Assembly (NCBI GenBank): GCA_947630575.1
Contig: CANRIB010000003.1
Coordinates: 15,670 to 79,669 of the forward strand
Reading direction: 5' to 3'
DNA length: 64,000 bases
Source: an uncultured Bacilli bacterium
GTDB taxonomy: Bacteria; Bacillota_I; Bacilli_A; RF39; UBA660
Shown here: positions 4,090 to 55,934 of the stretch, in pieces
How positions within the stretch are numbered: the stretch's first letter is position 1
How the letters are laid out: every line of letters starts with the position of its first letter
Program-made: the position numbers and the translations under genes
The notes under the pieces: generated by a model
Database searches by the model: none
The model's input: the letters and a program-made list of their open reading frames with translations, nothing else
Told to the model about the DNA's origin: nothing

Positions 4090-4533
4090 CTAAATAGATT
4101 CATCCACTTTCCCCAGTAAATAATCAGCAGAAACTTTATATGTTTTACATATCGCATAAAGATAAAAAGTAGAAACTAAATTACTACCTCTTTCATACAT
4201 TGCAATAGACGATTGAGTAGTTTTCAATATTTCTGCTAATTTTTCTTGTGTAATTTTATTACTTTTTCTCCAGTCTTTAAGTCTTTTTCCAATCAAAACT
4301 TTATCATTATTTATTTTTTCAAAAGTTAATTCTTTTTTAGAAGTTAAACCAAACATATAATCCATTGAAACATGATAATAATTACATAACTTAATTAAAT
4401 ATTTAAGAGGCATAATAAAACACTCGCTCTCATAATGCGTATAGGTTATTTCATTAATTCCTAAAACTTTAGCAATATCTTTTTGCAACAAATTTTTATT
4501 AATTCTAAGTTCTTTCAAAGTTTCAGCATACAT
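4090..4533 (-). CDS. tandem (double) XRE-type HTH transcriptional regulator
   Basis: Two HTH units are present (LKELRINKNLLQKDIAKVLGINEITYTHYE and LKDWRKSNKITQEKLAEILKTTQSSIAMYE). The start is moved to MYAETL, which has an AGGTGA RBS. The gene is divergent from the 4702 gene. Confidence 0.75.
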   Translation of the reverse strand: MYAETLKELRINKNLLQKDIAKVLGINEITYTHYESECFIMPLKYLIKLCNYYHVSMDYMFGLTSKKELTFEKINNDKVLIGKRLKDWRKSNKITQEKLAEILKTTQSSIAMYERGSNLVSTFYLYAICKTYKVSADYLLGKVDESI

Positions 4534-4701
4534 AGTTATCACCTGATTTAATTTTCTCATTAAACAAATTCCAAAAAAATATAACCGTTAAAACTATGAT
4601 ATTTTTCTTGACTTTTGACATTTGCTAGATTATAATTTAAGCATAAGTTAGAAATTTCTAATATGATTGATAATAAGTTAATTATAAAGAAGGGAAGATT
4701 A

Positions 4702-6117
4702 ATGAAAGTAGAGAAGTTAAGTAAAAGAAAAAGTAAGAGAATAATATTAGTTATCACAATAATAGTATTGCTAGTAGGAATAATATATATAACAAATAGC
4801 AAAGCAAAATATCAAATAACCAAAAGTGTACAAATAGTTAATGGTAATGTTAATTATAGTTTAGCAGATTTAAATGTGTTAGCATTACAAGTACAAGATA
4901 GTAAAGGTAGTGAAACATATAATCAAGTAGAAACAGTGCCAATTGGTAATTATAAAGTAAATGTAGATAAAAGTTATTGCAAATATCCAGGAGATAATCT
5001 AGAGCATAAAGATATACCAATGGAATATAAAAATAATAGAGTTAGTATAAGTATAAACAAAAAGGGAACAAAATGTTATATATATTTAGATGTAGCAAGC
5101 ACTAAAAAAGTAGAAACAGCATTAGGAACTATAGATGTTAATTTATATATACCAGATTTTAATAAAACATCATGTGAAGATGGCTGTGAAGAAGCAACCA
5201 ATGGAATATATGAAGGAGAAGAAAATGGATTACCAACATATTATTTCCGAGGAACAGTAGATAATAACTATGTATTATTTGCAAATATGTATTGGCGCAT
5301 CATCCGAATTAATAGCAATGGTTCAATCAGAATTATTTATAATGGTTCTACACCAGGAGCAACAGGAAAAGCAACACAACTAAATAATGGAGAAGCGCAA
5401 ACATTTAGTAAAGATGCTAAAAACGACGACAATGCTTATGTAGGATATATGTATGGAGAAACTAGTCAAGCGCAAAGTCTAGATGGCTACAATGCAACTC
5501 ATGCAAACACTCATGATAGTGGAATAAAAGAATATATAGATAATTGGTATAAAAATGTATTATCAAAAGCAAAAAATAATGAAAAAAATGCAACAGAATA
5601 TATAGACATAGAAGCGGGATTTTGTGGAGATAGAACACCATTTCAATTTGATGGGATAAGTGTAACAACCAAACCAGATAAAAATGAATATGGAGCAGGA
5701 ACAACACCAACATATTATGGAGCATGGTATAGAAGAGATAGATCACATCAACTAACATTTGATTGTCCAAATGTATCAAATGACTTGTATACAGTAAGTG
5801 GAGCAAAAACTGGAAATCATGCTTTAACTAATCCAATAGGTTTAATAACAGCAGACGAAGTAATGTATGCAGGAGGACAACATAAAATTAATTCTGAATA
5901 CTGGTTATATACAGGAGAAGCAGGCTATTGGACCATGTCTTCGTCTAGCTTTAACAAAAATCCAGCTTTAGCTACCATACTGCATGTTAGTTCGGATGGC
6001 ACTCTGGGAGGCGACTACGTGAGCACAAAGCGTGGTGTGCGTCCTGTAATAAATTTGAAGGCTAATACTAAATTTACAGGAAGTGGAACAACAGATAGTC
6101 CATTTGTAGTTCAATAA
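4702..6117 (+). CDS. exported/membrane-anchored protein, paralog family member A1 (DUF6273-like C-terminal domain)
   Basis: N-terminal basic stretch plus TM (KRKSKRIILVITIIVLLVGIIY), with GAAGGGA RBS before the MKVEKL start. The C-terminal roughly 330 aa look about three-quarters identical by eye to the 56234..58081 product (YYFRGTVDNNYVLFANMYWRIIRINSNGSIRIIY, NPIGLITADEV, VRPVINLKAN). Confidence 0.75.
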   Translation: MKVEKLSKRKSKRIILVITIIVLLVGIIYITNSKAKYQITKSVQIVNGNVNYSLADLNVLALQVQDSKGSETYNQVETVPIGNYKVNVDKSYCKYPGDNLEHKDIPMEYKNNRVSISINKKGTKCYIYLDVASTKKVETALGTIDVNLYIPDFNKTSCEDGCEEATNGIYEGEENGLPTYYFRGTVDNNYVLFANMYWRIIRINSNGSIRIIYNGSTPGATGKATQLNNGEAQTFSKDAKNDDNAYVGYMYGETSQAQSLDGYNATHANTHDSGIKEYIDNWYKNVLSKAKNNEKNATEYIDIEAGFCGDRTPFQFDGISVTTKPDKNEYGAGTTPTYYGAWYRRDRSHQLTFDCPNVSNDLYTVSGAKTGNHALTNPIGLITADEVMYAGGQHKINSEYWLYTGEAGYWTMSSSSFNKNPALATILHVSSDGTLGGDYVSTKRGVRPVINLKANTKFTGSGTTDSPFVVQ

Positions 6118-6380
6118 TCTAATAATTTAAAATCCTTGCCTAAGTCGCTCTAAACTTATTCTTAGGCAAGATTAAATTCCATGCGAGGATATTCTCCTCG
6201 TCTTTTTTATTTATATAAATTAAAAAAATCAAATTATTCCCCATAATAAAACCTTATTAAAGGCTTATTATTAACAATAATTTGACATTTACTATTTTTT
6301 ATGTTATTTTTATTCTGCAAGGCACACCTTAGGGGGTTCTTGGAGCTTGCCACAATCTTCCAATGAAGGGAGTGGTTATT

Positions 6381-6449
6381 ATGAGTAAAAAAGATTTTTT
6401 AATCTCAACACTTTTAATAATAATTATTCTTTTAATTATTTTTAACTAG
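6381..6449 (+). CDS. candidate type I toxin, 22-aa hydrophobic peptide (MSKKDFLISTLLIIIILLIIFN)
   Basis: Too small for the ORF track. GAAGGGAGTGG RBS lies about 6 nt upstream, and a TTGACA(6282-6287)-17 nt-TGnTATTTT promoter lies upstream. The 5' UTR is complementary to the 3' UTR (see findings). Confidence 0.4.
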   Translation: MSKKDFLISTLLIIIILLIIFN

Positions 6450-6471
6450 AAATACTTAAAAACATTAAAAA

Positions 6472-6551
6472 TAAAAAAAGCACCACCAATTCCAAATAGG
6501 TAAGTGGTGCAAACCAATATATGGCAAGCACTAATCGTGCCTTGCTATATT
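6472..6551 (-). ncRNA. candidate antisense (antitoxin) sRNA overlapping the 3' UTR of the 22-aa ORF
   Basis: A minus-strand intrinsic terminator is present: stem 6504-6510/6480-6486 followed on the minus strand by C+T7 (6472-6479). A minus-strand TATAAT sits at 6563-6558, but the -35 is poor. Confidence 0.3.
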
Positions 6552-6677
6552 AAGTATATTATAATTTTTAATAAAAGTAAAGTGGTACTTGTAATATAAA
6601 CAGTTTTTTGGTATAATTAAAAACACCTTAAAACTTTTTTATTTATTATTTATATTAAATGAACGGAGGAATTTTAA

Positions 6678-8312
6678 ATGAGTAAAATAAAAATTTTTAG
6701 TTTGGGCGGACTTGACGAAAATGGCAAGAATATGTACGCGATTGAAATAGATAAAGATATTTTTTTATTTGACTGTGGTCTTAAATATGCCAGTGGTAAT
6801 ATGTTAGGTATTGATTACATAATTCCTGATTTTTCTTATTTAGTTAAAAATAGAAAAAGAATTAAAGGCTTATTTATAACTCATGGTCATTATGAAAACA
6901 TGGGTGCAACAAGTGATTTATTATCTGTTATTCCGAATTTAAAAGTTTATGCTACTAAATTTACTAAATATGTTTTAATGGAAATGGGTGTCAATAAAGA
7001 AAATATTATTGAAATAAAAGCTCATAAAAAGATTAATTTTGGTCATGTAAGTATTTTTCCTATCAGCGTTTCTCATAGTGCGCCCGATGCAGTCATGTAT
7101 GTTGTAAACACAAGAGATGGAGCTATATGTTATACTGGTGATTTCATTTTTGATCCATCTATGATGGGTGCTTATGATATGGACTTAGGTAAAATTGCCT
7201 ATATTGGTAAATTAGGGGTATTATGTTTATTATCCGAATCAGTATTTAGTGAAAATATTGGTCATACATCACCAAATCACAAACTTGAAGAAGTATTTAA
7301 AAAATCAATTAAAGATGCTGAAGGCCGTGTTATGTTCATGGTTTTACCAACCCATTTATATACTATTCAAGAAATATTTGATGCTGCCGTTAATTCCCAT
7401 CGTAAAGTTGTAATCATGGGTAAACGTCTTCAAAATATGATTAACTTTGGGTTAAATGAAGGATATTTAAAAGTAGAACAAGATATGCTTGGTGATTTAA
7501 CGAATATTAATGATTCTAATTCCATATTATTAATATGCGACGATAAAGCCAGTCCTTATGCTGCTATGTCTAAAATTTATAATGGTTATGACAAATTTAT
7601 CAAACTAAAACCTGATGATACTATTGTCTTTTCTGAGCCTCGCTACGACAGTAATGAAAAATTACTCGTAAAACTAGAAAATGACTTATCAGAAGTAGGC
7701 TGTGAAATTGTTAATATTCCAAGTGATAAAACTATTTTACATCATGCCTCAAGTGAAGACTTAATGCAAATGATAAAATTAATGCGTCCTAAATATTATA
7801 TGCCTGTAAAAGGTGAATACCGTTATATGGTTGGTAATGCGAATTTAGCAAATAGTTTAGGTATTCCAAAAGAGAATATTATCTTAAAGCAAAATGGTGA
7901 AGTTATTGAATTTGACAATGGTGAACTTATTGATAAACAAGAAAAAATCAAAGTAAATGATTGTCTAATCGATGGTAAATCAAGTGATGATATAGGAGAA
8001 CTAGTAATTAAAGACCGTGAAATGTTAAGTGAAAATGGTATAGTTTTAATTAGTGCTACTATCTCTAAACAAGATAAAGTCTTATTAGTAGGACCAGAAG
8101 TAACTACCCGTGGATTTATATATATCAAAGATAGTTTAGATATGATTAGTGAAATTAAAAAAATAAGTACCACTATTATTGAACGTAATATTACCCCAAA
8201 TTATGTTGATTACAATAAAATAAAAACTGAAATTAGAGATGAACTAAGTTATTATTTATATGGTGAAACAGAATGTAAACCTATGATAATCGCGGTAGTT
8301 CAAGAAGTATAG
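6678..8312 (+). CDS. rnj: ribonuclease J family protein (RNase J2-like, degenerate metal site)
   Basis: Collinear with the RNase J beta-CASP architecture (GGLDENGKNMY, LGIDYIIPDFSYL, KGLFITHGH, YTGDFIFD, RPKYYMPV.GEYR, GPEVTTRGFIY). Motif 2 reads HGHYEN instead of HGHEDH. Confidence 0.85.
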   Translation: MSKIKIFSLGGLDENGKNMYAIEIDKDIFLFDCGLKYASGNMLGIDYIIPDFSYLVKNRKRIKGLFITHGHYENMGATSDLLSVIPNLKVYATKFTKYVLMEMGVNKENIIEIKAHKKINFGHVSIFPISVSHSAPDAVMYVVNTRDGAICYTGDFIFDPSMMGAYDMDLGKIAYIGKLGVLCLLSESVFSENIGHTSPNHKLEEVFKKSIKDAEGRVMFMVLPTHLYTIQEIFDAAVNSHRKVVIMGKRLQNMINFGLNEGYLKVEQDMLGDLTNINDSNSILLICDDKASPYAAMSKIYNGYDKFIKLKPDDTIVFSEPRYDSNEKLLVKLENDLSEVGCEIVNIPSDKTILHHASSEDLMQMIKLMRPKYYMPVKGEYRYMVGNANLANSLGIPKENIILKQNGEVIEFDNGELIDKQEKIKVNDCLIDGKSSDDIGELVIKDREMLSENGIVLISATISKQDKVLLVGPEVTTRGFIYIKDSLDMISEIKKISTTIIERNITPNYVDYNKIKTEIRDELSYYLYGETECKPMIIAVVQEV

Positions 8313-55510: not shown

Positions 55511-55557
55511 ATCAAAAATACTTGCATTTTACCTATGTTTTAGTATATAATATGATT

Positions 55558-55646
55558 AGGACAAACAAAAAGAGGCACTTGTTGGTGTTCTCAGTCCAAT
55601 GTTTTTGGTTTTGAACACCTAACAAATTGTAGGTGTTCTATTTTTT
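55558..55646 (+). ncRNA. candidate antisense (antitoxin) sRNA of the second type I TA-like module
   Basis: Promoter is TTGCAT (55522-55527), 18 nt, then TATAAT (55546-55551). An intrinsic terminator gaacaccta/taggtgttc plus T-run lies at 55613-55646. The sRNA is convergent with the 19-aa ORF and lies in its 3' UTR. Confidence 0.35.
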
Positions 55647-55651
55647 ATTAG

Positions 55652-55711
55652 TTATTTTAATATTTTGGCAATAAGTACCAAAATCAAAATAAGTACAATC
55701 AAGTACTCCAT
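55652..55711 (-). CDS. candidate type I toxin, 19-aa hydrophobic peptide (MEYLIVLILILVLIAKILK)
   Basis: Too small for the ORF track. AAGGAGAAG RBS lies 2-3 nt upstream (tight spacing). The minus-strand promoter is TTGACC (55851-55846), 18 nt, then TATAAT (55827-55822). 5'/3' UTR complementarity is present. Confidence 0.4.
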   Translation of the reverse strand: MEYLIVLILILVLIAKILK

Positions 55712-55934
55712 ACTTCTCCTTAAAACTAAGTAGCTTCATGGACTTCACCTCACTTTCTATAATATTATTTCTAATAAAATAGGACTGAGGAATAAAACAC
55801 CAAACTTGTGCCTCTAATAAAATTATAAAATGCTAAATATATTTTGGTCAAATAAATTTTACATAAGTTTACATAAATATTTTTAAACATCTAACAAATA
55901 AGTGTAGATGTTTTTTTAGTTTACTAATTATTAT

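Follow-up and report, generated by a model that had tools for sequence, protein, structure and literature searches.

A candidate type I toxin-antitoxin module of bsrG/SR4-like design, with a 22-codon reading frame and an end-to-end mRNA clamp, in uncultured gut Bacilli

Introduction

The bsrG/SR4 locus of Bacillus subtilis, which is carried by the SPbeta prophage, and the related txpA/RatA, bsrE/SR5 and yonT/SR6 loci are toxin-antitoxin (TA) systems of type I in which the two RNAs share an overlap at the 3' ends. For hok/Sok (plasmid R1) and AapA1/IsoA1 (Helicobacter pylori), the part of the toxin mRNA targeted by the antisense RNA is the 5' leader or the region of translation initiation, and activation requires 3' trimming. 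Here we describe a module of 300 bases (positions 6282-6581) in a 64-kb stretch of DNA from an uncultured Bacilli bacterium (contig CANRIB010000003.1), the whole of which is hereafter called the window. The module comprises a 22-codon open reading frame (ORF), a pair of nested helices that clamp the two ends of its predicted mRNA together, and a convergent gene for a predicted antisense small RNA (sRNA). We consider it probable that the module is a self-contained type I TA-like unit with the 3'-overlapping design of bsrG/SR4.

In the bsrG mRNA, nt 1-35 pair with nt 232-262, and binding of SR4 frees nt 1-33, lengthens the helix around the Shine-Dalgarno (SD) sequence from 4 to 8 bp and promotes decay (PMC3834814). 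The txpA/RatA pair overlaps by ~75 nt at the 3' ends and acts via RNase III, while the par locus relies on a shared bidirectional terminator and on direct repeats, DRa and DRb, which make the antitoxin complementary to the translation-initiation region of the toxin (PMC4147584).

Results

The module was found to resemble the bsrG/SR4 class in several respects. Its two RNAs are predicted to be convergent and to overlap in the 3' untranslated region (UTR) only, outside the ORF and the ribosome-binding site. A long helix, with its 3' arm within the antitoxin target, closes the 5' end onto the 3' region. When the antitoxin occupies the 3' arm, the SD stem becomes longer, as probed in that class and as modelled here, and the host encodes RNase III (contig C2 of the source genome, PF14622 match, 127 bits). 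The overlap of ~75 nt is shared with txpA/RatA. Unlike the members of this class, the module has a peptide and an RNA without sequence homology to them in Pfam, NCBIfam and Rfam, and the peptide has 22 amino acids (aa), as against 38 for BsrG and 59 for TxpA. Its mRNA has no terminator of its own past the closing helix, and its antisense RNA starts at the outer arm of that helix, the 5' 30 nt being a near-copy of the mRNA leader. In contrast to bsrG/SR4, the module is multi-copy in the small genomes of uncultured bacteria and is not prophage-borne. A search of positions 5500-7500 against Rfam at a permissive E-value returned chance-level matches only.

With regard to the other described systems, par of pAD1 of Enterococcus faecalis (Fst/RNA I-RNA II) and the chromosomal Fst-like loci also combine a convergent peptide mRNA and antisense RNA in low-GC Gram-positive bacteria, with a hydrophobic peptide and a ribosome-binding site sequestered in a 5' stem-loop. 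However, the module terminator serves the minus strand only and is not bidirectional, and the module repeats are inverted, the sRNA having the same sense as the leader. Complementarity of the par type between the sRNA and the 5' region of the mRNA was no better than in shuffles (mean z = -1.0). The long-distance 5'-3' pairing that locks the full-length toxin mRNA is common to hok/Sok, AapA1/IsoA1 and the module, whereas the module antisense RNA targets the 3' arm itself, from a gene lying wholly 3' of the ORF. In addition, the module has neither a mok-like overlapping frame, as in hok/Sok, nor a conserved upstream reading frame. Membership of the par/Fst and hok/Sok groups was rejected, as the module fails on their defining features. 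A reading of the window from its letters alone (the sequence-only reading) had likened the module to hok/Sok, txpA/RatA and bsrG/SR4; the last two analogies hold, the design being shared, and the first has to be given up. The family is no described one: it is built like the known Bacillus type I systems and matches them in design, not in sequence.

The features of the module are listed in Table 1. The TTGACA-17-TG-TATTTT promoter, the strong SD with the 22-aa hydrophobic ORF, the nested exact 5'/3' complements and the opposite-strand hairpin with its T7 run are all present where the sequence-only reading had located them. Its proposed extent of 6282-6565 is right at the start and too short at the end, as the antisense promoter reaches 6581 and so lies partly beyond 6565.

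Table 1. Features of the module in the window (positions of the window; sRNA, promoter and toxin assignments are predictions)
Feature	Position	Strand	Details
Toxin-mRNA promoter	6282-6310	+	-35 TTGACA 6282-6287; 17-nt spacer; TG 6302-6303; -10 TATTTT 6305-6310
Outer 5' arm, helix 1, GCAAGGCAC	6317-6325	+	Exact complement of 6537-6545; predicted first mRNA nucleotides
Inner 5' arm, helix 2, GCTTGCCA	6345-6352	+	Exact complement of 6522-6529
SD-sequestering hairpin	6350-6375	+	Anti-SD CCAC; stem CTTC/GAAG 6357-6368; SD GGGAGTGG 6368-6375
Ribosome-binding site (SD) GGGAGTGG	6368-6375	+	
22-codon ORF MSKKDFLISTLLIIIILLIIFN plus TAG	6381-6449	+	Predicted membrane peptide, candidate toxin
Predicted antisense sRNA	6472-6546	-	~75 nt; candidate antitoxin; starts at outer arm, own terminator
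Antisense intrinsic terminator	6473-6510	-	Stem 6510-6504 / 6486-6480 (GCACCAC/GTGGTGC), then U7 6479-6473
Inner 3' arm TGGCAAGC	6522-6529	+	GGCAAGCAC invariant in 31/31 aligned copies
Outer 3' arm GTGCCTTGC	6537-6545	+	
Antisense promoter	6553-6581	-	-35 TTTACT 6581-6576; 17-nt spacer; -10 TATACT 6558-6553

Within the predicted mRNA, nt 1-9 and 29-36 pair with two segments ~200 nt downstream to form a panhandle, and this clamp is worth ~-24 kcal/mol in the window copy. Each arm motif is confined to its two sites in the window. The expectation that the arms would pair better than in shuffled controls was borne out: the RNA 6312-6560 (249 nt) folds to -67.4 kcal/mol, compared with -42.6 +/- 4.6 kcal/mol for 200 shuffles (z = -5.4), none of which folds equally well, and its minimum-energy structure contains both long-range helices. 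Conservation of the clamp was assessed in alignment A1, which holds 31 distinct copies from the genus. Pairing there amounts to 97% in helix 1 and 93% in helix 2, whereas sliding the 3' partner by 1-3 columns leaves 27-44% of cells paired. Two pairs of helix 1 exchange G-C for A-U, in 4 and 7 sequences, and in five more the change is one-sided and invariably yields G·U or U·G. This gives 29 wobble cells, stemming from about eight separate changes when the alignment is read by eye, against one internal mismatch. Since G·U on the plus strand corresponds to C·A, a mismatch, on the minus strand, it is the plus-strand RNA and not the DNA that is constrained, from which we infer that the mRNA reaches at least 6545. 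RNAalifold recovers both helices unprompted. These substitution patterns indicate that the 5'-3' clamp is an RNA structure under selection.

The toxin promoter has the top promoter-like score in the region (10/12 matches, TG present) and would start the mRNA at ~6317, at the outer 5' arm. Both of its hexamer blocks are conserved in the alignment of 35 full-length copies, and a strict regular expression matched it in 16 of these, each time 6 nt ahead of the outer arm. The ORF is exactly 22 codons long in 30/35 copies; the exceptions include C-terminal extensions to 28-29 aa in two copies and a GTG start in one, and the ribosome-binding site is degenerate in two. As an in-frame ATG at 6363 exists only in the window copy, the conserved start is 6381. 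The consensus is M[SNK]K[KQ]D[FL]L[IV]..L..IIIL[LQE]IIF[KRN]. The peptide is short and strongly hydrophobic, with a cationic N-terminus. Column entropy is highest at third codon positions (0.88), lower at first (0.59) and lowest at second positions (0.29), while the pooled pN/pS is 0.36 and the median dN/dS is 0.28. By these measures of codon evolution, the 22-codon ORF is genuinely coding and under purifying selection.

On the opposite strand, the antisense promoter would initiate ~7 nt on, at 6546/6545, and thus at the outer 3' arm. This promoter was absent from the earlier feature list. The pattern TTTAC[AT]-17-TATACT/TATTAT/TATAAT occurs 6-8 nt ahead of GCRARRCAC in 33/35 copies, and the spacer is invariably 17 nt. 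The sRNA predicted from it folds to -26 kcal/mol (z = -3.9), overlaps the 3' UTR of the mRNA only and ends ~23-25 nt past the stop codon (6447-6449). Both 3' arms fall inside its footprint, and the perfect duplex between the sRNA and the mRNA 3' UTR amounts to -138 kcal/mol. The terminator hairpin (helix 3) is retained with compensatory changes, and its energy is nearly equal on the two strands (-14.1 vs -15.0 kcal/mol). In most copies, however, a U-tract lies 3' of the hairpin on the minus strand, whereas no copy has one on the plus strand, where the tail reads AAACC or GAACC, so that the element would be a one-way terminator for the antisense RNA. Conservation of both its promoter and its terminator signals argues that a cis-encoded antisense gene overlaps the toxin mRNA.

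Promoter plus leader is present at both ends of the module, as inverted copies; hence the sRNA and the mRNA share their first 9 nt plus the GUGCUUGCC box. The first ~30 nt of the predicted sRNA are a near copy of the mRNA leader, and the sRNA thereby holds a same-sense version of it (GCAAGGCAC..GUGCUUGCC).

The anti-SD lies next to the clamp: the final CC of the inner 5' arm is shared with the anti-SD CCAC at 6350-6353. By eye, the anti-SD varies with the subtype (CCAC, CCAUC or CCUC) and adjoins the inner arm in every subtype. When the window copy was cofolded with the sRNA, the clamp was displaced by the sRNA and the stem around the SD grew from 4 to 10 bp. Occupation of the 3' region lowers the modelled probability of an unpaired SD from 0.1-0.3 to ~0.02 in the main subfamily.

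The source genome (G000) is a 1.33-Mb metagenome-assembled genome (MAG) of 27% GC from rabbit gut, and it contains a second copy of the module (C27:7641-7888). Within the genus, the family has at least 35 full-length copies in 18/44 species genomes, with 1-17 per genome. Tandem copies are frequent, for example on contigs 18, 42 and 73 of G013. For many copies, in either orientation, a contig end is 100-150 bp away (e.g. G002 contigs 7, 10, 34 and 41; G013 contigs 4 and 16; G021 contig 79); the repeats evidently break short-read assemblies, which makes the copy numbers lower bounds. Conservation in the 35-copy alignment falls into blocks that match the predicted functional parts exactly (the two promoters, the leader, the ribosome-binding site, the ORF, the hairpin and the 3' block GGCAAGCAC-N-GTGYCTYGC), and similarity ends at both -35 boxes. 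One locus, L039 (G023:C40:9831-10451), has other sequence in place of the toxin promoter and leader, a degraded ribosome-binding site and an Asp5-to-Tyr change, but intact 3' arms and an intact antisense -10 box; it looks like a decaying toxin gene that retains the antitoxin side. Many copies (e.g. L048 and L015) carry in their 5' flank a conserved hairpin, (G)CAGATTTnnnnAAATCTG(C), whose trailing T-run overlaps the toxin -35 box. This hairpin, which the window copy lacks, may insulate the toxin promoter as an upstream terminator.

Searches beyond the genus were carried out in several ways. A loose pattern of the arms, run over 596 Gb of genomes, gave mostly chance matches, the real relatives being rabbit-gut MAGs. 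A cluster of Streptococcus matches (loci L071-L132) was rejected, as it consists of a repeated intergenic palindrome, ACGGCAAGCACTATGGTGCCTTGCC, which forms a local hairpin in longer repeats and is unrelated to the module. The phage and plasmid collections searched with blastn contained no match to the module. A covariance model built on the entire mRNA was run against 61 genomes of the order and found full-length matches in 26 genomes and in 19 of 48 sampled genera of the family. Conserved in these relatives are the MxKKD[FL]LI start of the peptide, which has 20-32 aa, a hairpin immediately past the stop codon and the two nested 5'-3' helices. Their arm sequences are quite different from those of the genus family, and they are still complementary. 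In the alignment of these relatives, 93.5% of cells are paired, compared with ~35% in slid controls, and 21/24 pairs are altered on both sides, including all 8 pairs of the inner arm helix 2. This alignment was fitted to the model and so favours the structure, although the complementarity of the arms is plain by eye. On this comparison across genera, the architecture of the module predates the genus.

The covariance model also recovered a third, diverged module in the source genome that was found by no other means (L219, C7:38481-38709). Its peptide is 27 aa long (MYKKDFLILSLIMIIFLLIALLFTLVI), its inner helix has 14 bp, three of them G·U pairs, and TTTTTT follows the outer arm. A further module in the window (module 2, 55522-55851, minus strand) has a like architecture in an unrelated sequence family: a TTGACC-18-TATAAT promoter, a 19-aa ORF (MEYLIVLILILVLIAKILK), a hairpin just past the stop codon, and a leader (AGAGGCAC..CTCAGTCC) complementary to GGACTGAG..GTGCCTCT. 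In the sister families and in module 2, the outer 3' arm runs straight into a U-tract, and there the clamp resembles a terminator in its own right. In the family described here, this tract has decayed to UAUAUU/UAAAUU.

In the window, the module lies upstream of an RNase J paralog in the same orientation. This arrangement was found in 2/42 genomes of the genus that have this RNase J, namely the source genome and its closest relative. The other members examined have different sequence upstream of RNase J and the same RNase J promoter, so the module is not part of RNase J regulation. That promoter, ACTTGTAA..TTTTTTGGTATAAT (window 6585-6617; loci L179-L205), is conserved across the genus, and the antisense -35 box ends ~7 nt from it, which places the two opposed promoters nearly back to back. 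A target-site duplication could not be read upstream of RNase J, where the right boundary abuts the conserved promoter and the left flank is variable too. The flanks differ at each copy, and the insertion sites are scattered.

A cassette encoding a helix-turn-helix (HTH) protein and an exported protein adjoins the module in 6/15 loci with flanks. A tblastn search of the source genome gave no fewer than 35 paralogs of the double-HTH regulator (window 4090-4560) and no fewer than 50 paralogous matches to the exported protein (4663-6117). The paralogs of these two proteins make up a very large share of the 1.33-Mb genome. An initially strong association with the HTH cassette was downgraded to a weak enrichment, since adjacency is ~2-3x chance given these paralog numbers.

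Discussion

This analysis supports a conserved gene module well, and its function as a TA system is likely. The proposal that the stretch holds an unannotated type I TA-like module agrees with the coding selection on the ORF, the covariation at the RNA level, the conserved antisense promoter with its one-way terminator, and the multi-copy, patchy spread. The module is also tandemly amplified, a distribution that resembles that of selfish TA loci.

If the module works as a bsrG/SR4-like TA unit, the sigma-70-type promoter would give rise to an mRNA from ~6317, whose arms would close the whole message into a panhandle. The clamp would stabilise a poorly translated toxin mRNA, as the anti-SD CCAC hairpin masks the ribosome-binding site and should keep translation of the peptide intrinsically low. 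The convergent promoter would fire at the outer 3' arm and produce an antisense RNA of ~75 nt with its own terminator. Being antisense to the 3' arms, this sRNA matches the leader over its first ~30 nt. Its binding would displace the leader, open the clamp and lengthen the hairpin over the ribosome-binding site, and it would create a duplex of ~75 bp for RNase III while exposing both ends of the mRNA. Were the antisense RNA lost, the mRNA would last under the protection of its clamp, and the peptide would become inserted in the membrane.

A more specific version of this TA reading can be put forward tentatively, and we regard it as rather doubtful. Here, the antitoxin gene would have arisen as an inverted duplicate of the toxin promoter and leader, and its product would be a competitive mimic of the leader, with such a leader-mimic clamp being ancestral to the superfamily. 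Both RNAs would compete for one 3' arm, and a single strand exchange would convert a closed, end-protected mRNA into an open one that is sensitive to RNase III and exonucleases and has its ribosome-binding site masked more tightly. On this proposal, the superfamily would fill the reduced genomes, of 0.7-1.6 Mb, found in an uncultured family of gut Bacilli, at up to 17 copies each, and in the sister families the clamp with its U-tract would act as a transcription terminator.

Several observations weigh against the interpretation as a TA unit. The toxicity of the peptide is a prediction from the analysis, and a comparison of five peptides with Pfam and NCBIfam gave no match below E = 0.3, and thus no toxin family. 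Transcription of both strands, leader displacement and RNase III cleavage are likewise predicted: the search of RNA-seq runs returned no run containing the window stretch. Runs holding a relative were rejected as transcript evidence, as they contain 100-kb contigs and look like DNA assemblies. No plus-strand intrinsic terminator is present within 260 nt downstream of the outer arm in 32/35 copies, so that the mRNA 3' end is without a defining signal and read-through into the neighbouring gene is possible. The inner 5' arm is missing in three copies, which makes helix 2 dispensable. Finally, the modelled mean effect of the sRNA on access to the SD, computed with energy models, is small: over 30 copies, the unpaired probability is 0.17 in the free full-length mRNA and 0.12 with the sRNA footprint blocked.

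It is unlikely, though worth weighing, that the peptide is a non-toxic small membrane protein, such as a transporter or envelope modulator, under cis-antisense and structural control. This would account for the masking of the ribosome-binding site in each modelled state and would agree with the toxicity being a prediction and with the missing toxin-family match. Nevertheless, the range of 0-17 copies among species of one genus, the tandem arrays, the decayed copies and the scattered sites fit selfish elements better, and the design equals that of experimentally proven toxin loci.

An exported or surface-active peptide, i.e., a leaderless bacteriocin, a pheromone or a peptide resembling phenol-soluble modulins, with RNA elements that merely tune its expression, appears improbable. 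The short, strongly hydrophobic sequence with its cationic N-terminus would suit such a role, and genes of this kind can be multi-copy. However, no export, immunity or modification genes accompany the module, whose flanks differ everywhere, and the masked ribosome-binding site and the antisense RNA point to expression that is normally off.

We consider it very improbable that the inverted repeats are DNA elements rather than RNA helices, either terminal repeats like those of miniature inverted-repeat transposable elements or operators for a repressor such as the neighbouring HTH protein. The inverted promoter and leader copies at the module ends, the multiple copies and the HTH cassette beside 6/15 loci would all be compatible with this. 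A constraint on DNA, however, does not predict one-sided arm differences that are G·U-compatible on the plus strand (29 wobble cells vs one mismatch), nor arms that are wholly different between genera and still pair; HTH adjacency is only ~2-3x chance, and no copy was found on phage or plasmid records. The idea that the ORF encodes a leader peptide and that the structure serves to attenuate the RNase J paralog downstream is hardly credible, despite the shared orientation and the lack of a plus-strand terminator in between, as the module precedes RNase J in 2/42 genomes that have it, RNase J keeps its own conserved promoter, and the other copies each have different downstream genes.

Type I TA systems are said to be restricted to a few phyla and to <5% of the species therein (PMC12390103). 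Because its ORF has only 22 codons, the family described here was missed by gene callers and family libraries, and yet uncultured gut Bacilli with very small genomes contain it in abundance. As the modules break metagenome assemblies, they merit annotation. The comparative record alone, without experiment, indicates that an end-to-end mRNA clamp and an antisense gene are both under selection. Should the peptide prove toxic, it would rank with the shortest type I toxins, and the bsrG/SR4 mechanism, in which the antitoxin opens a 5'-3' helix, would extend from one Bacillus prophage locus to a clade-wide superfamily.

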